Part shown: piece after piece, positions 9,830 to 62,917 of the stretch
Position numbering within the stretch: the first letter of the stretch is position 1
Layout of the letters: each line of letters begins with the position of its first letter
Sequence record: MT932213.1
Strand: one strand, 5' to 3'
Source of the DNA: Escherichia phage VEc74
DNA length: 64,000 nt
Made by a program: the position numbers and the translations under genes
The notes under the pieces: model-generated
Seen by the model: only the letters and a program-made list of their open reading frames with translations
What the model was told of the DNA's origin: nothing
Database searches by the model: none

Positions 9830-11248
9830 TTATGGATAGGTATAGATGATACCAGTTTCTAAAGCAGTTTTATGAATGATGTATCCATTACGCGATTCTT
9901 GGACATCAACTTCTGGATAATCTTTCATCATCTTCTGAAGAGTGTAACGATGCAGGTAGTATTTACTATCTGGATCTTCAGTTTTCCAATCTTTACCTTC
10001 TTCAGTCATTTTTTGAATTTCATCCATAACCCACCAACCACACCAGATGTAAGCTGAGCTACGGTGTGGAAGAGGATGAACATAAGGTAATTCACCTTCT
10101 GGTTCTGGAGCAACTTTATCAGTTACCTGAACTTGACCTTCTGCCGTAATAGTTTTGCTATCATAATCAGCAGCAGTAACAGTTGCAGTAACTTCAATAG
10201 TTTGACTTCCAATAGATGAGGTATCAACGGTATATACATTAGTTGACCCTTCTACAGGAGAAGAATCTTTCTTCCATGAATATTCAATTTGCGCTTCTTC
10301 TGGAGCATCAGTGACATTAGCAGTAAATGTAGCCGAAGCATCTTGTTGAACGTTAATAGAAGGAGGAGTCAATGTAACCTGTGGATTCATTGTCTTCTTA
10401 TTAACCGTTAATGATACTTCATTAGAAGTAACTTCCTTTTCATTGTAATTTTCAGCAGTTACTTGAGCTACGCATTTAATTCTTTTTACTCCACTTGTAG
10501 TTGGAGTATAGTTAAATGTAGAGTTAGTTTCTCCACCAACTTGTGAATCATCTACATACCACTGATACGTAGCAGATGCTCCATCAGGTTGAGAAGCTAA
10601 GGCAGCAGTAAATTGAACTGGGGTTCCGATAACTCCCGCTGGAGGACTATCAGGAGTTACTGCCAAAGTAGTTGTCTGCTCCTTTTTATTAACAGTCAGT
10701 GATACTTCATTAGAAGTAACTTCTTTTGCATCATAATCTGTCGCGGTTACTTGAGCCACACACTTAATTGTTTTAACTCCGCTTGTGGTAGGAGTGTAAT
10801 TGAATGTAGCAGAAGTTGCTTCGCCCACAGGAGAACCGTCAACGTGCCATTGATACGTAGCAGATGCACCTGGTGGCTGCGAAGTTAAGGCAGCGGTAAA
10901 TTCAACAGCTGTTCCAATCACTCCAGCAGCAGGACTATCAGGAGTTACAGCTAAGGTGGTCGTTTGTGTCTTATTTTGAACTGTGATAGTTGTAGTAGCT
11001 TCTGCTGTTTCAGCATCAGTATCTGGGACTGGGTTTGTTGCAACTACTTTAATAGTCTTTTGACCGGCAGGTCCTTTTAGTACATAATTAAAAGTTGCTT
11101 CAGCTCCATCTTGTGGAACATCATCTACAGTCCAAGCATATGTAATAGGTCCATCTCCAGTTTGACCACTGGGTGTAGCAGTAAACTGCTGAGTCTGATC
11201 TATAACTCCAGTAGGTGTTTTAGGAGTTATATCAACTGTAAAAGCCAT
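9830..11248 (-). CDS. hoc: Highly immunogenic outer capsid protein Hoc, 4 Ig-like domains plus capsid-binding C-terminus
   Basis: 472 aa; N-terminus MAFTVDITPKTPTGVIDQTQQFTATPSGQTG and C-terminus ...YIIHKTALETGIIYTYP match T4 Hoc; two near-identical ~95-aa Ig-like units in tandem. Confidence 0.9.
   Translation of the reverse strand: MAFTVDITPKTPTGVIDQTQQFTATPSGQTGDGPITYAWTVDDVPQDGAEATFNYVLKGPAGQKTIKVVATNPVPDTDAETAEATTTITVQNKTQTTTLAVTPDSPAAGVIGTAVEFTAALTSQPPGASATYQWHVDGSPVGEATSATFNYTPTTSGVKTIKCVAQVTATDYDAKEVTSNEVSLTVNKKEQTTTLAVTPDSPPAGVIGTPVQFTAALASQPDGASATYQWYVDDSQVGGETNSTFNYTPTTSGVKRIKCVAQVTAENYNEKEVTSNEVSLTVNKKTMNPQVTLTPPSINVQQDASATFTANVTDAPEEAQIEYSWKKDSSPVEGSTNVYTVDTSSIGSQTIEVTATVTAADYDSKTITAEGQVQVTDKVAPEPEGELPYVHPLPHRSSAYIWCGWWVMDEIQKMTEEGKDWKTEDPDSKYYLHRYTLQKMMKDYPEVDVQESRNGYIIHKTALETGIIYTYP
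10390..10985 (-). repeat. Tandem ~300-bp intragenic repeat in hoc (two adjacent Ig-like domain units)
   Basis: Two consecutive ~297-bp units with long identical runs, e.g. gatacttcattagaagtaacttc and ttacttgagc in both. Confidence 0.75.
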
Positions 11249-22740: not shown

Positions 22741-22744
22741 CAAT

Positions 22745-22762
22745 GGGGACCGAAAGGTCCCC
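22745..22762. terminator. Bidirectional hairpin GGGGACC-GAAA-GGUCCCC between gene 54 and the alt operon
   Basis: Perfect 7-bp stem, GAAA loop, T-run follows on plus strand. Confidence 0.7.
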
Positions 22763-22768
22763 ATATTT

Positions 22769-23059
22769 TTATTTACGGAATGAAATGAAAGCAGCAACTG
22801 AAGCAACTAAACTGTCTTCAATATAAACTTCAATTTTTACCGGAGCTTCTGACTCAAATTTACCTGTTACTACACCCTGGAAAATACTTTCAGTCTGTTC
22901 TGGCTTTGAAAAATTTTCAGAAGGAAAAATTCCGAACTTTTTATCTGTTCCAAAAATTTTAATAAATTCATCGTAAACTGCTTCATTAAAAGCGTTATCA
23001 GCAGGAATAACGCCTTCAACTACAAGTTCTTGACCTAAAAAGCGCAAAGAAGATTTCAT
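22769..23059 (-). CDS. Hypothetical protein (alt-downstream ORF)
   Basis: 96-aa ORF with its own early-type promoter and SD GAGGA. Confidence 0.55.
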   Translation of the reverse strand: MKSSLRFLGQELVVEGVIPADNAFNEAVYDEFIKIFGTDKKFGIFPSENFSKPEQTESIFQGVVTGKFESEAPVKIEVYIEDSLVASVAAFISFRK

Positions 23060-23090
23060 TTTGTGTTCCTCATGTTATGTCAGTAAGACT

Positions 23091-23120
23091 ACTATAACAC
23101 AACATAAGGAACTTGTAAAC
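23091..23120 (-). promoter_or_regulatory. T4 early promoter (GTTTACA -35, N17, TATAGT -10), part of a repeated promoter/leader cassette
   Basis: Minus strand GTTTACA-17 nt-TATAGT; leader and GAGGA SD before 96-aa ORF; near-identical copy upstream of alc. Confidence 0.6.
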
Positions 23121-25177
23121 TACATTTTGAACTTTTTAGACATTCCGTTGATGTTAACCAAAGAAGCTAAGATTTGAGAAACTTCGTTTTCCTCTTCTTT
23201 TGATTCTTCTACAAGGAATTGATTAAATCCAACCATTGGACGAACTTCACCAGTTTCCATTAGATGGTCGCCATCATATACTGATTCTTCTAATTGTTCA
23301 GAAGGAGGAACGATTGTACCTTCGATTAGATACTTGTTATAAGCCGTTTCTTTCATAAAGTACGTACTTACTTTATTAATCTTCAGTAAAATTCCACGAG
23401 GTAGAATAACTTCAGCTTCTGATGGAAATCCTGATAAATGACCTGGAACGATAACTTTGATTCGCTCAGCTCCTTTAATTACCATACCCACGCTAGTTTC
23501 AGCATCTTCATTGGCATATGTAGAATGACTACCCATATGCATCAAATGTTCTGCATCAACGGAACCTTCTCCTTCACCAGAAAATACTGCGCCGGAATCA
23601 TCTAGAGCCATATAGTTTTTACCATGCTCACCGAAGATATTTGGTTTAAGCGATGTCGATACGAAGTTCTTGAAATAGAACATTTTGTTTTCAATGTTAT
23701 GACGCAAAGTTTTAAAGGTAACTTCTTGTCCACGGTAAAGTGTAGTTCCTGGAGGAAGAACTGAACCTTTAGCGAATGCAGAATCCAACGTCTCGATGTG
23801 CTTAATAGCTCGTTCCATATATTCTTCACGGGTAGAATCTGGTTTACCCAAAAGGAACGAGTTCATTTCAACATATGAATCTGCACAATAATCTTCAATT
23901 ACATCAGACTCAGCCTGAGTCAGTCCTTTTGGAGTTACTTCAGTACTTGCATATTCATATGCCTGAGCAGCAGATTCATTAATCAATTTATAAATGCCAT
24001 TCATGACAAATTGAATAATAGCTGTCTTTTCATCTGGCGTAGCATTAGAACCTTTAACCAAATCATTGATAATTTTCTTAATAACATCAAAGCTATTAGA
24101 AATATTAATGTCAGCAAGATCGCTTAAAATTTTATCAGTTTTATAATCAAAGAATTCTTTATTCTTTAAATATTCTTGAGAACCTTGATATGTTATATCG
24201 CTTTGCAACTTGATAGATGGATCACGTAAACGTGCATGGGCTAATGCAATATGATTTCGGAAGTTTTCTAGTTCATAATCGCTAGATTTAAAACGAGAAG
24301 CACTTCTCATACCACCAATAGCTCCTTTGTTGAAGTTTGAACCAATCTGAATAACGCCAGAGTTCATTGGTCCTTCTGCTTTATATACCGGAACTTTAGA
24401 TTCAAACTCTTGATATTTCTTAGCAGCGAAGCTATCACCCTGAAGTGAAGCATCAACAGTAGAATATTGAGCTTGTGCTGCTAATCGACGACTAATTTTA
24501 GTTTTCTGAATAACAGCTTGATCCGTGCGCTTATCATTTTCTAAAGCAATAGAAGCAGCAACAGCGACAGCTTTAGGAACAGCATTACCTGTTTTAACGT
24601 CTACATAAACATCACCGACCTTTGATTCAACTTTTGTGAATAACTCAGTTGAAATAGGAGGTACACCTGGAATGTCTTCTAAATTGGCATTTTTACGGTA
24701 AACCATAATATATGCGTACTTTTTATCATAGTCCCAGATTTCCTTTAAAAGAACATATCGACCTGCTCCTTTAGTACGTACTAAACGGTCAGCAATAACT
24801 TGCATTTGACGAGCTGCGCCATTTGTTTTACTTTTTAGTACGCGGAATAAGCATGCGTCGATTTTATACTGCTTCATTGTTTGAAGAGCAGTATCAAAAA
24901 CCGCATTAATGACGCCAATTGGATTTCCACCCAAGTTTCTAAGCTTAACCAGCGATAATTTCTCGTTGACGCCTATCATTACGATATGCATCATTTTGTC
25001 GCCTGGCTTAACGTTTTTATTTGTATCACCGCCAGAGGTGTATGTACAAAATCTAAATCCAGGAAGCACACTTTCTTCGCCGGCTTGAATAGCAAAAATT
25101 TGTGGTATTTTATGCTTAGGATTTAAGTTAACAACCGGCGCCGAAGCGCCGTCAAATAATTCTGTAATAAGTTCCAT
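23120..25177 (-). CDS. Alt-family mono-ADP-ribosyltransferase paralog (copy 1)
   Basis: 685 aa; N-terminus MELITELFDGASAPVVNLNPKHKIPQIFAIQ parallels adjacent Alt; ART motifs present (R in TLYRGQ, STS in FVSTSL, acidic EAEVILPRG). Confidence 0.8.
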   Translation of the reverse strand: MELITELFDGASAPVVNLNPKHKIPQIFAIQAGEESVLPGFRFCTYTSGGDTNKNVKPGDKMMHIVMIGVNEKLSLVKLRNLGGNPIGVINAVFDTALQTMKQYKIDACLFRVLKSKTNGAARQMQVIADRLVRTKGAGRYVLLKEIWDYDKKYAYIMVYRKNANLEDIPGVPPISTELFTKVESKVGDVYVDVKTGNAVPKAVAVAASIALENDKRTDQAVIQKTKISRRLAAQAQYSTVDASLQGDSFAAKKYQEFESKVPVYKAEGPMNSGVIQIGSNFNKGAIGGMRSASRFKSSDYELENFRNHIALAHARLRDPSIKLQSDITYQGSQEYLKNKEFFDYKTDKILSDLADINISNSFDVIKKIINDLVKGSNATPDEKTAIIQFVMNGIYKLINESAAQAYEYASTEVTPKGLTQAESDVIEDYCADSYVEMNSFLLGKPDSTREEYMERAIKHIETLDSAFAKGSVLPPGTTLYRGQEVTFKTLRHNIENKMFYFKNFVSTSLKPNIFGEHGKNYMALDDSGAVFSGEGEGSVDAEHLMHMGSHSTYANEDAETSVGMVIKGAERIKVIVPGHLSGFPSEAEVILPRGILLKINKVSTYFMKETAYNKYLIEGTIVPPSEQLEESVYDGDHLMETGEVRPMVGFNQFLVEESKEEENEVSQILASLVNINGMSKKFKM

Positions 25178-25180
25178 GAT

Positions 25181-27271
25181 TTATCCTTGAACGAACTTGT
25201 AAGGCATGTTTGTAATATCTATGCAAGACGCAATAATTCCAAGAGATGATTCTACTTTCTGTTTAACATTTGATGAAACAAATGATGCAAAGTCAACTCT
25301 ATCTTCTATATCACCTGTCATTGTAACCAATTCACCAGTTTCCATTAAATGGTCTCCGTCATAGATTACCGATTCAGTGAGTTCTTCTGTGGTCATAACT
25401 TCAGCTTGAATGAGTTTTGTATTATTAGACGTGGTTCCGTCATTATTAGAAGCATCAATTATTTTATTAACTTTGACCATCAATCCGCGCGGTAGAATAA
25501 CTTCAGCTTCTGTTGCTATTCCGAGACTTCCTGGATATACAACATTAACTTTATGAGCTCCATCAATTGCCCATCCTATTTGAACTTTAACGTATTCAGG
25601 ATTTTCTTTATACGCTCTTATTTCGTTTGGATTAATAGTTATTCCTTCTTCATTTTTATCAACTGTTAATTCATTACGAGCTTCTGGTTCTAAAAGACCA
25701 ATACCAGCATGTGTAATTCCAAAACGTCCAAAAATGATAGGAGTTAAAGAAGTAGATACAAAATTTCTGAAATAGAACACTTTATTTTTAACTAGTGCTT
25801 CGTATATAGGAGCAGTCATACTTTGAGCACGATAAACTGTAATGCCTTCCGGTATGCGGTCACCATTTTCAAAAGCTGAATCTAAATTATTTATAGCAGA
25901 TTCAATTTCTTTTTCACTCATTACATCATATCGTTCTGGATTGTAACGACCTAAAAGAAGATTATTAATGTCTGTATATCCTGAACCGCAATATTCTCTA
26001 ATGCCACGCTTTTGTGATGGAGTATATTTAGAACCATCACGGGCAATAGTAATATCAATCATTGGACCAGCACCAATTCCAGAAAAGCTATAAATCATTC
26101 GTTTGAGGAATTTAGTTTTTGCTGCATTCCAGGCATTTTTAGTTATTTCTCCCCAGACTTCATCTGGCTGCCCTTTACGAGTTTTATTATGTTTATCAAG
26201 CCAATTATCTTTATATTCTTCAAAGAGTTGATTAACAGCTGCTGCGTATTTCTCTAAACATTTTATTGAAGTAGTTGGTTCATTTTTAATCGCATTAAGA
26301 ATTACATCTTTAATTTTTTCAGAAACTTCATCAACCTCACTTTTTGAAAAGAATTTATATTCATAGTGAAGTTCATTTGCAGTTCCTTCAGCAATAATTT
26401 TTGCTGCCTTAGTTTTAGAAGCTAATGAATTAATTCCAAGCTTCATTTCTTCTGCTTCGGGAATTAAAGGAGCAGTAGCAGGTTTATTAAAATTAGCTGC
26501 GGTAGATTCATACTTCTGGAATAATTCACTTTCAAATCTAGAAGATTCTAATGATTGACTTTGCGCAATTGCTCTACGGGAAATTTTAACTTTAACGATT
26601 ACAGCTTGATCAGAACGTTTATCATTTTCTTGCGCAATAGATGCTGCAATTGCCTCATTTTTAGTTACTTGAGCTCCAGTATCTTTATTGATATAAACAT
26701 CACCGACCTTCGATTCAACTTTAGTAAAGAGTTCGGTACTAATTTCCGGAACTCCTGGAATGTCTTCTAGTGATACATTTTTGCGATGTATAAGAATATA
26801 TGCATACTTTTTATCATAATCCCAGAGTTCCTTAAGAAGGACGTATCTGCCACCTGAACGACTACGGATAAGTCTATCAGCAATAACTTGAATTTGTCGA
26901 GCTTGACCAGCAGTTTTAGACTTAAGAATACGGAGCATACAAGCATCAATTTTATATTGACGCATTGTTTGCATTGCAACAGTAAAAACTGAATTGATAT
27001 AATTAATTGGACTTGGACCAAGACCTTTCAATTTAGCAATTGAACCTTTAGCAGTTAATGTAAAAGGAACAATATGCATCATTTTATCGCCCATCTTTAA
27101 ATCACGATTAGTATCACCTCCAGATGTATAGGTACATAAACGAAAGCCTGGTTGTTCAATTGCATCATCAACGTGAACTGAAAAAATTTGCGGTATTTTC
27201 TTCTTTGGATTTAAGTTTGTAATCGGAAGAGTAGTATCTTCGTCAAATAATTCTGTAATGAGTTCCATCAT
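25181..27271 (-). CDS. alt: Alt mono-ADP-ribosyltransferase (virion-packaged, modifies host RNA polymerase)
   Basis: 696 aa; ART motifs (TVYRAQ, FVSTSL, EAEVILPRG); adjacent to ligase gene 30 as T4 alt; minus-strand late-promoter motif ~20 nt upstream. Confidence 0.85.
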   Translation of the reverse strand: MMELITELFDEDTTLPITNLNPKKKIPQIFSVHVDDAIEQPGFRLCTYTSGGDTNRDLKMGDKMMHIVPFTLTAKGSIAKLKGLGPSPINYINSVFTVAMQTMRQYKIDACMLRILKSKTAGQARQIQVIADRLIRSRSGGRYVLLKELWDYDKKYAYILIHRKNVSLEDIPGVPEISTELFTKVESKVGDVYINKDTGAQVTKNEAIAASIAQENDKRSDQAVIVKVKISRRAIAQSQSLESSRFESELFQKYESTAANFNKPATAPLIPEAEEMKLGINSLASKTKAAKIIAEGTANELHYEYKFFSKSEVDEVSEKIKDVILNAIKNEPTTSIKCLEKYAAAVNQLFEEYKDNWLDKHNKTRKGQPDEVWGEITKNAWNAAKTKFLKRMIYSFSGIGAGPMIDITIARDGSKYTPSQKRGIREYCGSGYTDINNLLLGRYNPERYDVMSEKEIESAINNLDSAFENGDRIPEGITVYRAQSMTAPIYEALVKNKVFYFRNFVSTSLTPIIFGRFGITHAGIGLLEPEARNELTVDKNEEGITINPNEIRAYKENPEYVKVQIGWAIDGAHKVNVVYPGSLGIATEAEVILPRGLMVKVNKIIDASNNDGTTSNNTKLIQAEVMTTEELTESVIYDGDHLMETGELVTMTGDIEDRVDFASFVSSNVKQKVESSLGIIASCIDITNMPYKFVQG

Positions 27272-27291: not shown

Positions 27292-27299
27292 TATTTATA
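27292..27299 (-). promoter_or_regulatory. Late promoter motif (TATAAATA on minus strand) upstream of alt
   Basis: Forward TATTTATA ~20 nt upstream of alt ATG; consistent with late expression of a head-packaged protein. Confidence 0.55.
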
Positions 27300-31698: not shown

Positions 31699-32031
31699 TT
31701 ATTTTACTACTTTCCAATGCTGCATGTCAAGTTTACCAACTTTTTTCATCTTCTCAATTAAGCGTTCGGCACGTTGGCGAGCTGTAACATAATACCATTC
31801 ACCTAATTCATTTTGTTCAATTTTTCCAACGATTACTGTATTCAATTCATAAATCCAACCAGTAAAGAAATTATGAACTTGAATTGTAAAGGTGAAATCT
31901 GTTCCCATACCTTCTGTTGTTTCTACTTCAATAATATCACCTTCAACCGCCATTAAGAACCACATAGTTTCATCATATTTACCATTGAAGCATTTAGTTT
32001 TAACTGTAGCGTTCAGATTAATCGTTTTCAT
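31699..32031 (-). CDS. Hypothetical protein (30.x)
   Basis: 110-aa ORF. Confidence 0.5.
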   Translation of the reverse strand: MKTINLNATVKTKCFNGKYDETMWFLMAVEGDIIEVETTEGMGTDFTFTIQVHNFFTGWIYELNTVIVGKIEQNELGEWYYVTARQRAERLIEKMKKVGKLDMQHWKVVK

Positions 32032-32118
32032 TTTATTCTCCTTTGTTTGTGTAAGATAATACTATCACAAAGGAACCGTACTGTAAACAACTTTGTGCAA
32101 TCTTTGGAAAATAAAAAA

Positions 32119-32136
32119 GGACTCCCGAAGGAGTCC
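32119..32136 (-). terminator. Hairpin GGACUCC-UUCG-GGAGUCC plus U-tract
   Basis: Perfect 7-bp stem followed by T-run on minus strand. Confidence 0.6.
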
Positions 32137-32141
32137 TCAAC

Positions 32142-37761: not shown

Positions 37762-38111
37762 TTAGAAAGGTCCTGGATGTCTTCTGCGAACTTGTTGAAG
37801 GAGTTGTTGATTTGTTTTTCAACCAATCCTGGCTTATGAGCCACCACATCCGCCTTCTTTGCATCTTTGCGCAGTTTTTCATTTTCACGCTCAATAGCAG
37901 CAATTGCCTCACGATTTTTATTATTCATCGCATCAATATAATTATACTGAATTTGCAAATTATTTAACGCTAAGGCGTTTTCATTGGCCGTTTTTGTAAT
38001 TTCAGTAACTGATGTTTCTAATCTTTCTACCTTATTTTTTAAAATAATAGATGTTCCGCCAAATGCTATTACAAGTAATAGCAATCCAGCTGTAAAATTA
38101 CTTACATGCAT
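37758..38111 (-). CDS. pseT.3: Inner-membrane i-spanin
   Basis: 117 aa; N-terminal transmembrane helix (FTAGLLLLVIAFGGTSIIL) then coiled-coil periplasmic domain. Confidence 0.7.
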   Translation of the reverse strand: MHVSNFTAGLLLLVIAFGGTSIILKNKVERLETSVTEITKTANENALALNNLQIQYNYIDAMNNKNREAIAAIERENEKLRKDAKKADVVAHKPGLVEKQINNSFNKFAEDIQDLSK

Positions 38112-38608
38112 AAAGTTTTAATAACCTCTATAATATCGTCTTGGGAAAGACCGTTAATTAAAATATGATGCTCAGCTGGAGATTTAGAAATTTTAAAGCA
38201 TGCCTCAACATCTTCTGCCATATCCGATGCACTACGATTTGGATTACTAATTCCAAGACGATGCTTTCCAGTCAAAGGATTAACAATAATGTAGCATTTA
38301 CAGCTATTGATATGAACATTAGGTTGAGTCTGATTAATGAACACTTCACAATCATACTTAGCGAGTTGATTTTCTAAAAAGACTTTCATCTCTTCAACCG
38401 CATCAGGAAGCATATCACGGGCTTGCTCAAGACGACGATTTCGATATTCTTTAATGGTCGTTTTCCGCTTGACTTGCTTAGCTAAATCTTTCTTAAGATC
38501 GGTGATATATCCAACTCGACGATTTCCTTTAAATACAGAAATCCCATCTGTAGTATCACCGTATGCTTCAACGACCATTTCAGTAGTAATGAGCTGCAAA
38601 TCCATCAT
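38102..38608 (-). CDS. alc: Alc, inhibitor of host transcription on cytosine DNA
   Basis: 168-aa ORF in T4 alc position between spanins and rnlA; early promoter upstream. Confidence 0.65.
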   Translation of the reverse strand: MMDLQLITTEMVVEAYGDTTDGISVFKGNRRVGYITDLKKDLAKQVKRKTTIKEYRNRRLEQARDMLPDAVEEMKVFLENQLAKYDCEVFINQTQPNVHINSCKCYIIVNPLTGKHRLGISNPNRSASDMAEDVEACFKISKSPAEHHILINGLSQDDIIEVIKTLCM

Positions 38609-38636
38609 AAAGTCCTCATGTTATGTCAGTAAGACT

Positions 38637-38666
38637 ACTGTAACACAACACGAGGGACTTGTAAAC
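38637..38666 (-). promoter_or_regulatory. T4 early promoter (GTTTACA -35, N17, TACAGT -10) for alc; second copy of the repeated promoter/leader cassette
   Basis: Minus strand GTTTACA-17 nt-TACAGT; ~50 bp nearly identical to 23063..23120. Confidence 0.6.
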
Positions 38667-38669
38667 AGC

Positions 38670-40257
<1,588 letters not shown>

Positions 40258-46438: not shown

Positions 46439-46681
46439 TTAAACAGACTTTTTCACAATTTTCCAATCAGCTTTAAACTGCTCGACGTCAGAATGGTAAA
46501 TCCAGAATCCTGCGCTTTCTCCGTCTTCATAAAGAGGACATCCATCACATTCATCTTCCCACCCCATGTCACGTAAAAGATGTTCAGCTTTTTCAACAAG
46601 TTCAGAATCTTTACCGATGATATTAAAATACCATTTACCTCTAACTTCCGAATCTTTGATGCTATGGCGTTGTAATCTCAT
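46439..46681 (-). CDS. frd.2: Hypothetical protein frd.2
   Basis: 80-aa ORF with early promoter upstream. Confidence 0.55.
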   Translation of the reverse strand: MRLQRHSIKDSEVRGKWYFNIIGKDSELVEKAEHLLRDMGWEDECDGCPLYEDGESAGFWIYHSDVEQFKADWKIVKKSV

Positions 46682-46707
46682 TTTATTCTCCTCAAGTTGA
46701 TAAGGCT

Positions 46708-46737
46708 ATAGTATCATTACAATAGCCTGTTGTAAAC
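46708..46737 (-). promoter_or_regulatory. T4 early promoter (GTTTACA-N17-TACTAT) with overlapping stem-loop, upstream of frd.2
   Basis: Minus strand GTTTACAACAGGCTATTGTAATGATACTAT; inverted repeat AGGCTAT...ATAGCCT spans the spacer/-10. Confidence 0.55.
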
Positions 46738-46739
46738 AT

Positions 46740-46967
46740 TTATTTTTGAATTAAGCCCATATAAAATTTAGCATCTTCAGGATACATGCCATCACAATAC
46801 TCATTGGTCATAAAACTGATAAGGTCTTCAAGAGGACCTTGGACTTCAATTTGAATACTAAAGAATTGGGTATCTTTAATGTAAGCCATACTCAAAGAAG
46901 GATAACGATTGCGGATAACTTCATAAGTGTATTCAAAATCAACAATATCAATATTAACCTTAGCCAT
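46740..46967 (-). CDS. Small hypothetical protein, paralog A (frd.3-like)
   Basis: ~75 aa from [13 protein letters not shown]...; SD GAGGAAAA; early promoter upstream; paralogous to 47436..47666. Confidence 0.55.
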
Positions 46968-46996
46968 TTTATTTTCCTCATGTAGTTGATAGGGTA

Positions 46997-47026
46997 ATAG
47001 TATCACACTATTACCATGATGTAAAC
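46997..47026 (-). promoter_or_regulatory. T4 early promoter (GTTTACA-N17-TACTAT) with stem-loop, upstream of paralog A
   Basis: Minus strand GTTTACATCATGGTAATAGTGTGATACTAT; inverted repeat GGTAATAG...CTATTACC. Confidence 0.55.
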
Positions 47027-47391
47027 TACTTTTTGAAAGTTTTTCGCAAAAGTTCAATGATTTCATCTACATTGTTTTCGTCTACAATGCAGTGAATTTT
47101 TGTTACGCCAGAAACTGTGTCTTCGGCTCCATCTTCTTCAGAAGTCGGTTCTTTATACTCGCGAAAACAATGAAATTCGTCTTCACAAACGTTAAAGTAA
47201 AAATGCTTTCCATTTGCGCATTCAATGTGTTTTATTACTCTAAATCCATCAACAAAGAAAGCTTCTTTAACTTCAAACCATCCACCATTTTCTTGAATAA
47301 TTTTAACTATTGATGAATTAGAACGTGGGCGATAATTAATAAATGTATCAATAAGTCTTGGAACAAGCTCATACTTTTTGCCAATATACAT
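47026..47391 (-). CDS. Hypothetical protein
   Basis: 121-aa ORF between the two paralogs. Confidence 0.5.
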
Positions 47392-47435
47392 TACGTTTTC
47401 CTCATTTTAACGGGGCTGTAATAGCCCCTTGATAA

Positions 47436-47666
47436 TTATTGTTCAATCAATCCCATGTAAAATTCTGCGTCTTCAGAATCCATACCATCACAATATTCAT
47501 TAGCCATAAAGCGGGTGAGGTCTTCAAGAGGACCTTCAATGACAATAGAAAAATTGCAATAATTGGGATCATCGTGAATACTTGTGATACTAAGTTCAGG
47601 ATAACGATTACGAATAATCTCTTCAATATATTCAAAATCAACGATGTCAATATCAACTTTAGCCAT
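47436..47666 (-). CDS. Small hypothetical protein, paralog B
   Basis: ~76 aa from [13 protein letters not shown]...; SD GAGGAAAA; early promoter upstream. Confidence 0.55.
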
Positions 47667-47709
47667 ATTATTTTCCTCTTTAATCATCAGCAGTATTGCC
47701 GATAGTTGT

Positions 47710-47739
47710 ATAGTACCACAGCATGCTTTGGTTGTAAAC
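47710..47739 (-). promoter_or_regulatory. T4 early promoter (GTTTACA-N17-TACTAT) upstream of paralog B
   Basis: Minus strand GTTTACAACCAAAGCATGCTGTGGTACTAT. Confidence 0.55.
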
Positions 47740-47769
47740 CGTTTTGTGAAAAAATTTTTGAAATAAAAA

Positions 47770-62637: not shown

Positions 62638-62917
62638 ATTGAATCACCTTCAGTTGACGTTTTAATTCTTTTATCATTTCTTCGTTCATCGCAATATAAA
62701 GATCACGTAAAGCGGGTTTTAGCATTCCATTTACTGGAGAACTAAATGGACATACATAATCTTTTCCTACGAGCTTTTTAGTGAATTCCATATCACAGAA
62801 CTGAAATGCCGGTTCATTAGCATAAATTCCCCAATTAGTTGACATCATTTTATTGGCATATTCCAACGCCTGGATTTGATTCTTAATTCCATCAATTTGA
62901 AACTTTTTAATATTCAT
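62621..62917 (-). CDS. Hypothetical protein arn.2
   Basis: 98-aa ORF. Confidence 0.5.
   Translation of the reverse strand: MNIKKFQIDGIKNQIQALEYANKMMSTNWGIYANEPAFQFCDMEFTKKLVGKDYVCPFSSPVNGMLKPALRDLYIAMNEEMIKELKRQLKVIQFGQGN

Follow-up and report, generated by a model that had tools for sequence, protein, structure and literature searches.

The analyzed window, a stretch of 64,000 nucleotides from Escherichia phage VEc74 (sequence record MT932213.1), carries two copies of a 54-nt promoter cassette, one (copy A) between the genes alt.-2 and alt.-3 and the other (copy B) between rnlA and alc. The 2.5-kb region around each site shares 95-99% nucleotide sequence identity with about 500 Tequatrovirus records, including RB32, RB33, T4 variants and slur02, and the window can be assigned to Tequatrovirus (T4/RB32-like) phages; the gene names used below were taken from RB32 and T4 annotations. 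The genes around both sites are encoded on the minus strand. The following genes and repeat copies were distinguished:

23120..25177, minus strand: alt.-2, encoding a full-length (685 amino acids) Alt-like ADP-ribosyltransferase paralogue, upstream of copy A
23067..23120, minus strand: repeat copy A, from the G shared with the alt.-2 stop codon through the -35, spacer, -10 and leader to the Shine-Dalgarno (SD) sequence
22769..23059, minus strand: alt.-3 open reading frame (ORF), 96 amino acids, function unknown, downstream of copy A
38670..39830, minus strand: rnlA (RNA ligase 1), upstream of copy B
38613..38666, minus strand: repeat copy B, the rnlA/alc cassette, beginning with GTTTACA 3 nt past the rnlA stop codon (38670-38672)
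38102..38608, minus strand: alc ORF (inhibitor of host transcription), downstream of copy B

Copy A spans the entire intergenic gap between alt.-2 and alt.-3, and copy B the entire gap between rnlA and alc. The G of the alt.-2 stop codon TAG (23120-23122) is at the same time the G of GTTTACA in copy A. The leaders end in GAGGA-N7-ATG (alt.-3, ATG at 23059) and GAGGA-N4-ATG-ATG (alc, ATG at 38608/38605). The alc gene has an adjacent in-frame ATG pair (38603-38608), of which the second (38603-38605) is the start annotated in T4; this gives a protein of 167 amino acids, while the mechanical ORF call gives 168. SD spacing (GAGGA-N7-ATG for the second ATG vs. N4 for the first) favours the second, in agreement with the T4 annotation.

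The two copies (repeat family D11) are identical at 50/54 positions (93%) without gaps and lie 15,546 bp apart. In the pairwise alignment the identity runs from the G of GTTTACA to GAGGA, the flanks being unrelated on both sides, and the value for the whole cassette is 84%. An earlier note, made from the letters of this DNA, had described near-identical segments 15.5 kb apart, each with a GTTTACA -35, a 17-nt spacer, a -10 and a leader running to ATG, in front of unrelated genes. This description was correct in each respect: the promoter scan returned the same elements for both copies, no BLASTP alignment with E <= 100 was found between the Alt.-3 and Alc proteins, and the identity neither fell much below the count made by eye nor stopped at the -35/-10 consensus.

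A 38-nt core of the repeat occurs twice in the window (<=3 mismatches), compared with 0.00 occurrences expected from 100 dinucleotide shuffles. Since the other eight GTTTAC promoters of the window are just 31-73% identical to copies A and B over the whole cassette, the likeness of the two copies far exceeds promoter consensus. A similarity due only to the long consensus of T4 early promoters, or to chance, had to be considered, as this consensus extends beyond the -35 and -10 (PMC2988021) and unrelated early-promoter cassettes are already 50-75% identical. However, the positions matching between the copies, 50/54 here, 53/54 in T4 and 54/54 in several genomes, take in non-consensus spacer and leader, and no other promoter of the window approaches this identity. 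Repeat identity, shuffle expectation and comparison with the other window promoters rule out a chance or consensus-only origin, to which we assign a negligible probability; the repeat was confirmed as real and non-random.

Within the two cassettes the following elements were located by the promoter scan and by RNA folding, the transcription start sites being predicted from sequence geometry:

23114..23119, minus strand: -35 hexamer TTTACA of copy A, inside GTTTACA
23091..23096, minus strand: -10 hexamer TATAGT of copy A, with TGn before it and a 17-nt spacer
23084, minus strand: predicted transcription start of copy A, an A located 7 nt past the -10
23067..23071, minus strand: SD sequence GAGGA of alt.-3, paired in the predicted hairpin
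23065..23112, minus strand: predicted hairpin A of the sense RNA, 21 pairs (17 outer + 4 inner), -25.7 kcal/mol, z -5.2
38660..38665, minus strand: -35 hexamer TTTACA of copy B
38637..38642, minus strand: -10 hexamer TACAGT of copy B, with TGn before it (TATAGT in T4 and most relatives)
38630, minus strand: predicted transcription start of copy B
38613..38617, minus strand: SD sequence GAGGA of alc, paired in the predicted hairpin
38610..38660, minus strand: predicted hairpin B of the sense RNA, 22 pairs with one bulged C; -28.6 kcal/mol for a 71-nt fold (z -5.2), -25.7 kcal/mol for the cassette alone

The promoters read TTTACA-17-TATAGT with TG (23119..23091) and TTTACA-17-TACAGT with TG (38665..38637). 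By consensus match alone, both cassettes classify as sigma70 early promoters, and their layout agrees with the UP/-35/TGn/-10 type of T4 early promoters (PMC2988021).

The stem-loop had been expected in the leader. Instead, the whole cassette is predicted to form one sense-strand hairpin of about 21 bp, in which the 5' arm is the 17-nt promoter spacer (in copy B also the last A of the -35), the tip comprises the -10 and a 4-nt loop, and the leader, with GAGGA, makes up the 3' arm. Of 200 shuffles, none reached the folding energy of either copy. The 3' arm begins at the predicted +1 (the A of ACUGAC, 23084 / 38630), so a transcript from the cassette's own promoter would be unable to form the hairpin, and RNAs cut to this predicted 5' end gave no significant structure. 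In the predicted fold of both copies, the SD core GAGG is paired to the spacer along its full length (4/4 nucleotides). Partition-function calculations leave the SD sequence unpaired with a mean probability of 0.001-0.026 in read-through RNA vs. 0.18-0.67 in own-promoter RNA for the two copies; this contrast is alike in most of ten other lineages tested and small in L051 and L058. All three 5'-arm substitutions between copies A and B preserve pairing or strengthen it (C-G to U.G, G.U to A-U, and a C/A mismatch to U-A), the last one suiting the 3' flank specific to alt.-3.

Owing to G.U pairs, the sense-strand fold in Tequatrovirus is 8-10 kcal/mol more stable than the antisense one, which points to a role at the RNA level. 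The inverted repeat might alternatively act as DNA, either as a cruciform or hairpin modulating promoter opening or as a hotspot for recombination or endonuclease VII. A hotspot would explain why the cassette was copied, crossovers inside promoter-early stem-loop (PeSL) cassettes, including the loop, have been described (PMC2839356), the single-stranded DNA folds beat shuffles (-12.9 and -13.1 kcal/mol, z -3.8 and -4.3), and across genera both strands fold equally well. Yet folding of the complementary strand is clearly poorer in Tequatrovirus (DNA z -1.7 and -3.0; RNA 8-10 kcal/mol weaker), since several pairs exist only on the sense strand, as G.T wobbles; the variation between the copies consists of those same wobble/Watson-Crick interchanges, and no rearrangement between the direct copies is seen in about 500 genomes. 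We regard a function as DNA as very unlikely.

According to the mechanism that we propose, a strong sigma70-type T4 early promoter is nested in a ~21-bp RNA hairpin within a compact intergenic cassette. RNA arriving from upstream would hold both arms and fold, hiding the ribosome-binding site; such read-through would enter alc from rnlA and the genes beyond, and alt.-3 from alt and alt.-2 (23120..25177), including late transcripts. RNA started at the cassette's own promoter would begin at the base of the 3' arm, could not form the hairpin and would be translatable. Translation of alc and alt.-3 would thereby be tied to their own immediate-early promoters and insulated from read-through, by the same logic as in T4 e, soc, 49 and I-TevI, with an early instead of a late nested promoter. 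Two neighbouring elements bear on the transcripts concerned:

27292..27299, minus strand: motif of a late promoter, TATAAATA, preceding the alt ATG by about 20 nt
22743..22764, both strands: bidirectional intrinsic terminator at the end of the alt.-3 transcription unit, where gene 54 and alt.-3 converge

From the late motif, late read-through could pass through alt and alt.-2 into cassette A and alt.-3. The terminator is a perfect 9-bp, G+C-rich hairpin with T-runs flanking it on both strands.

Neither cassette hairpin is followed by a U-tract or T-run: the tails are ACACAAAATG and CTTTATGATG (given as ACACAAAAUG and CUUUAUGAUG for the intrinsic-terminator criterion), and the terminator scan, which finds 22743-22764 and 32117-32138, is empty at both sites. 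An intrinsic terminator was therefore rejected and read-through is to be expected. This bears on the view that the hairpin is the terminator or attenuator half of a PeSL, damping transcription from rnlA or alt.-2, with the pairing of the SD sequence being incidental. The layout is that of a PeSL, stem-loops overlapping the -10 are among the commonest PeSL subclasses, and one RB49 stem-loop lowered the expression of lacZ to a degree comparable with the rrnB T1 terminator (PMC2839356); in addition, stems over the -10 that leave the SD sequence free are frequent in the window and in T4, and some alc lineages keep a hairpin without the SD sequence. On the other hand, besides the tails and the empty scan, the homologous hairpins of other genera lack U-tracts too, and the RB49 stems tested are G/C-rich, unlike those of alc and alt.-3. 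We consider this explanation unlikely, although a stem without a U-tract might still attenuate transcription.

Rfam covariance models gave no match at either cassette at E <= 1, and a known RNA family was rejected on this basis. The hairpin may also be viewed as an element of mRNA processing or stability, i.e., a 3'-end protector of the rnlA or alt.-2 message or an RNase III-type substrate separating the cistrons. It begins 0-10 nt past the upstream stop codon and offers about two helical turns of near-perfect stem; moreover, secondary structure protects T4 intergenic GGAG sites from RegB (PMC3014915; PMC1702504), and GGAG lies within the stem in most alc cassettes outside Tequatrovirus. Against this stand the lack of a recognisable nuclease motif and of an Rfam match, and the fact that such a role leaves the nesting of the promoter, with its start site at the base of the 3' arm, unexplained. 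We think this quite unlikely as the hairpin's selected function; both attenuation and processing or stability could coexist with occlusion of the SD sequence.

The layout was followed across genera at alc. A tblastn search with Alc revealed homologues in 1,136 phage records of many genera. The rnlA-alc junctions were compared in eight phage records and in 41 IMG/VR loci encoding an Alc relative, the junction being read from 39 of them; these loci came from a profile-based search, which other genera required, as the close-relative IMG/VR search for Alc gave Tequatrovirus contigs only. Among the 31 distinct rnlA-alc cassettes, 24 share the layout in which GTTTACA is followed by a spacer forming the 5' arm, a loop with the -10 and a 3' arm holding the SD sequence (GGAG, GAGG or GGGG), counted as present when at least three of the four SD nucleotides paired with the promoter spacer. 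The stems comprise about ten unrelated sequences, e.g., UCUCCAUUUGGUUG/CAACCAAAUGGAGA, AUCCUCAUCAG/CUGAUGAGGAU, AACCUCUCAUUUU/AAAAUGAGAGGUU and CCUCGUUUGUU/AACAAACGAGG. Per-sequence folds anchored on the ungapped -35/spacer revealed 31 additional canonical pair types across 18 stem positions. In an unfitted MAFFT alignment of 12 alc cassettes, 86.6% of cells were paired vs. 36-48% with the partners slid; on the same alignment, 13 cells had both sides changed and 0/500 shuffles reached the observed covariation score. The layout at alc has thus been retained across Tevenvirinae genera with compensatory changes.

RNAalifold returned no structure for plain MAFFT alignments of all alc cassettes. 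We treat this as an alignment artefact and not as evidence against the fold, because the 3' arms are out of register in a sequence-only alignment; for this reason the unfitted 12-sequence subset and the -35/spacer-anchored folds were used. A covariance model built from the alc cassettes gave matches to other promoters too and, at the same palindromic sites, to the reverse strand; its alignment was excluded from the pair counts.

A change in gene content at the site was seen only in Gaprivervirus, where an extra ORF stands between rnlA and alc with its own terminator-promoter and SD-pairing stem. In the Gaprivervirus phages VR25 and VR20 (L020 / L042 / L043), this ORF encodes 77 amino acids and is preceded by a terminator-like hairpin with the -35 in its loop (AAAAGGGGTGTACAAGCCCCTTCTTT), then by a 10-bp stem pairing the ORF's SD sequence; alc follows the extra ORF after a 10-nt gap, without its own promoter.

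In the window, 7/10 GTTTAC promoters have stems pairing the spacer to sequence at or past the -10, and three of these stems include the SD sequence (those of alc, alt.-3 and P32088, which corresponds to the T4 30.8 promoter). The survey of T4 covered positions 1-77 kb and 117.5-168.9 kb, regions with 38 GTTTAC promoters and 33 compact cassettes. The entire SD core was paired to the spacer in 10/33 of these, with strong cases upstream of motB.2, nrdC.8, regB, denV, alt.-3, 30.8, alc and the ndd.4/5 region; after spacer shuffling the count was 4.2 +/- 1.5 (maximum 8). The alc and alt.-3 cassettes are among the strongest of the class, that of motB.2 being the sole rival; the motB cassette folds at -24.4 kcal/mol and leaves the SD sequence free.

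Several other cassettes were recorded during these comparisons. The nested T4 promoters with a -35 at 62797 (regB), 65413 (denV), 8218 (motB.2), 53943 (nrdC.8) and 166807 (NC_000866) have z values of -3.4 to -6.2. The SD sequences of the regB and denV cassettes are GGAG, the RegB cleavage motif, and secondary structure has been reported to protect such sites. On the minus strand of the window at 32026-32138, an early promoter with its -35 at 32087 has a spacer that pairs its own SD sequence AAGGAG; 28 nt upstream of it stands a textbook intrinsic terminator (32117-32138), formed by GAGGACTCCTTCGGGAGTCCTT and then TTTTATTTT. This promoter, whose T4 counterpart is that of gene 30.8, scores 33.2 bits with the alc-cassette covariance model, above the Tequatrovirus alc copy.

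Several observations weigh against the view that the hairpin serves to hide the SD sequence. The alt.-3 own-promoter RNA keeps this sequence partly paired (unpaired probability 0.18), and sense and antisense strands are on a par in mean folding energy across genera (-20.7 vs. -20.5 kcal/mol), so that an RNA-level role is favoured in Tequatrovirus only. Four other early promoters of the window have stems not touching the SD sequence, the alc stems of Tegunavirus and L055 cover the spacer and -10 and leave it free, and the spacer-to-SD hairpin is absent in Mosigvirus and L067/L068/L070; the primary selected function of the stem may therefore differ. When spacers were exchanged among the T4 promoters, the count was 6.1 +/- 1.9 (maximum 11) against the observed 10, and we judge the enrichment of SD occlusion in T4 to be real but moderate. 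Inclusion of the SD sequence could be a by-product of compactness, because an intergenic region of 60 nt is so short that a long hairpin with the -10 at its centre will always reach it. Start site, RNA structure and effect on translation are, moreover, matters of prediction and not of experiment.

Taking both sides together, we put the chance that the hairpin was selected for hiding the SD sequence on read-through RNA at about even. A broader proposal is that an SD-hiding hairpin with a nested immediate-early sigma70 promoter is a general, selectively maintained and transplantable "transcript-origin filter" of Tevenvirinae. It may comprise the alc cassettes of most genera and, in T4, roughly a fifth to a third of the early promoters, possibly including those of regB, denV, motB.2, nrdC.8 and 30.8. 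Such a filter would confine translation to the first minutes of infection despite persisting read-through RNA, and its cassettes could move between loci by short-patch recombination at their consensus ends, from alc to alt.-3 in Tequatrovirus and possibly in reverse in Mosigvirus. We hold this proposal tentatively, slightly doubting it on balance.

The history of the duplication could be followed further. In six phages of five genera (Gaprivervirus, Dhakavirus, Mosigvirus, Marfavirus and Karamvirus), alt.-3 is preceded by a different cassette, with GTTTACA, a small hairpin wholly within the spacer (e.g., CACCACAAGGAUGUGG) and a free SD sequence. Hence, the alc-type copy at alt.-3 is a Tequatrovirus novelty and the alc copy, whose architecture is conserved across Tevenvirinae, ancestral. 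The alt.-3 copy was probably transplanted from alc, once, in the Tequatrovirus ancestor, where an alc core of ~37 nt would have replaced the original alt.-3 promoter core. The alc and ancestral-type alt.-3 cassettes share GTTTACAA on the left and ACATGAGGA on the right, and short-patch recombination between these blocks is the most likely mechanism; exchange of the ~37-nt core would be enough to give the present state. At cassette position 11 of the alt.-3 copy in the window, C to T repairs a C/A mismatch that arises because the alt.-3 3' flank differs (GGAAC rather than GGACUU), and the 5'-arm changes of this copy look like adaptation of a transplanted cassette to its new site. We are confident that this element of PeSL type, an early-promoter cassette embedded in a hairpin, has been duplicated and that alc was its source.

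A candidate exchange in the opposite direction was observed in Mosigvirus. Its alc promoter (L023 PhAPEC2, 341-401; L053) is without an SD-pairing hairpin and resembles an alt.-3-type cassette, with a small CACC..GGTG hairpin in the spacer and a TATCAACAACA leader. It shares 76% identity with the Mosigvirus alt.-3 cassette (L028, AV112) vs. 61-67% with other alc cassettes, and may represent a cassette swap in the direction opposite to that of Tequatrovirus.

The earlier note had further proposed that the cassettes are mobile and mark likely recombination breakpoints. As to mobility, the core has apparently moved once, from alc to alt.-3, and the sequence otherwise keeps to two fixed loci: a blastn search with a 69-nt query found it at 997 places in 499 phage records, two per genome, and the genome-wide search for additional copies suggested there yielded none. 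Every alc-type match listed lies between rnlA and alc, and every copy extracted came from one of the same two loci. In about 500 genomes nothing pointed to continuing mobility or to rearrangements having occurred between the direct copies, and we take the cassette sequence not to be a multi-copy mobile element. An exact-pattern IMG/VR scan retrieved 8 loci from four contig sets, too few and too similar for a gene-conversion test. The 2.5-kb flank was covered to at least 80% in 496/504 records at alc and in 401/503 at alt.-3; part or all of the shortfall at alt.-3 is plausibly due to the alt.-2 polymorphism seen in T4.

The role as a breakpoint marker was hardly borne out. T4 is without window positions 23140-24829, and the junctions of this indel are 9-bp direct repeats ACTTTTTAG (plus strand), one inside alt.-2 and the right-hand one, which the 54-nt repeat does not include, 11 nt upstream of the alt.-3 -35. 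The indel looks microhomology-mediated, and PeSL-PeSL recombination was rejected as the cause of the T4 alt.-2 deletion in view of these junctions. The history would thus come down to a single transfer of the core, a single neighbouring deletion at microhomology and, in another genus, a single insertion at the homologous junction. In the window, alt.-2 (23120-25177) and alt (25181-27271) are tandem full-length paralogues on the minus strand, giving rise to repeat families D1, D3, D9, D10, D15 and D19 (~2088 nt apart, 70-94% identity); T4 keeps only the fragments alt.-1 and alt.-2 because the 23140-24829 segment is missing.

Two other repeats of the window were recorded. At 46680-47740 on the minus strand, two paralogous ORFs of 75 and 76 amino acids, both starting with MAKV, share ~80% DNA identity (D4, D6; spacing 696-699 nt), each with a GTTTAC early promoter of its own in front (P47026 and P47739); a further promoter, P46737, adjoins the pair. 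This looks like a tandem promoter-plus-ORF duplication of the kind discussed in the PeSL papers. A tandem direct repeat of 288 nt with 76% identity (family D2) at 10394-10969 presumably represents internal repeats of a structural gene.

The element is a regulatory cassette of an already known phage kind, to which this analysis adds the nested promoter/SD hairpin, the covariation at alc across genera and the probable alc-to-alt.-3 transplant. If the proposed mechanism is true, the T4 immediate-early genes, including that of Alc, would have an extra layer of temporal control, in which translation proceeds from own-promoter transcripts only and not from the abundant later read-through RNA, the mirror image of how the lysozyme gene e is classically controlled. 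PeSL stem-loops, so far read as terminators or recombination sites, would gain a concrete post-transcriptional function. The pair of copies offers a clean case of a regulatory cassette apparently copied between loci within a phage genome, and in the engineering and annotation of T4-like phages promoter spacers constrained by RNA pairing with the downstream SD sequence would be expected.

PeSLs, as defined by Arbiol et al. (2010; PMC2839356), consist of an upstream stop codon, an AT-rich stretch, the -35 and -10, a stem-loop (which may overlap the -10), an SD sequence and an ATG. Both copies show this structure, having a sigma70-like promoter between stop codon and ATG and a stable stem-loop over the spacer, -10 and leader. 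The match with PeSLs drawn in the earlier note therefore stands as regards structure; a terminator role, with no U-tract present, is not evident. Further points of likeness are the inclusion of G-T pairs in the stem-loop (PMC2839356) and the consensus ends usable as homology for exchange, which fit the alc-to-alt.-3 transfer of the core. The promoter consensus of PeSLs from the PST/T4 pair is TTTACW-N17-TAYWAT (Comeau et al., 2014; PMC4122927). The differences are that (i) PeSLs occur in many copies flanking ORFans, mostly in hyperplastic regions with variable ORFans and indels, whereas the alc/alt.-3 sequence is present in two copies at fixed conserved loci, (ii) the alc/alt.-3 stem is much longer (~21 bp), not G/C-rich, without a U-tract and reaches the SD sequence, and (iii) the PST/T4 stems are placed just upstream of the promoter in the 2014 paper (PMC4122927), which is not so in the alc/alt.-3 cassettes. 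Both PeSL papers interpret the stems as terminators or attenuators and recombination sites (PMC2839356, PMC4122927), recombination or mini-circle formation between copies being among the properties ascribed to PeSLs. Neither paper takes up translation, and the words "translation" and "ribosome" do not occur in the text of the 2010 paper (PMC2839356). With intrinsic terminators the cassettes share a stable intergenic stem-loop right after the stop codon, but their stem is A/U- and G.U-rich, lacks a U-run and contains a promoter.

Hairpins that occlude the ribosome-binding site and carry nested late promoters are documented for T4 e, soc, 49 and I-TevI (Uzan and Miller, 2010; PMC3014915). No example with a nested early promoter was found in that review or in the other literature retrieved (Miller et al., 2003 being outside its coverage), and the literature search returned no paper on genome-wide T4 start-site mapping. 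The likeness is twofold: the SD sequence and/or AUG lies in a helix on long, upstream-initiated transcripts, and the promoter lies in or over the 5' arm, so that proximal transcripts are without that arm and are translated; for alc and alt.-3 both features are predicted. The promoters of e, soc, 49 and I-TevI are gp55-dependent late promoters (TATAAATA), a motif present inside neither cassette, and delay translation to late infection. In contrast, the promoter nested at alc and alt.-3, known here from sequence alone, is of the immediate-early sigma70 type, and translation would be limited to the earliest transcripts.

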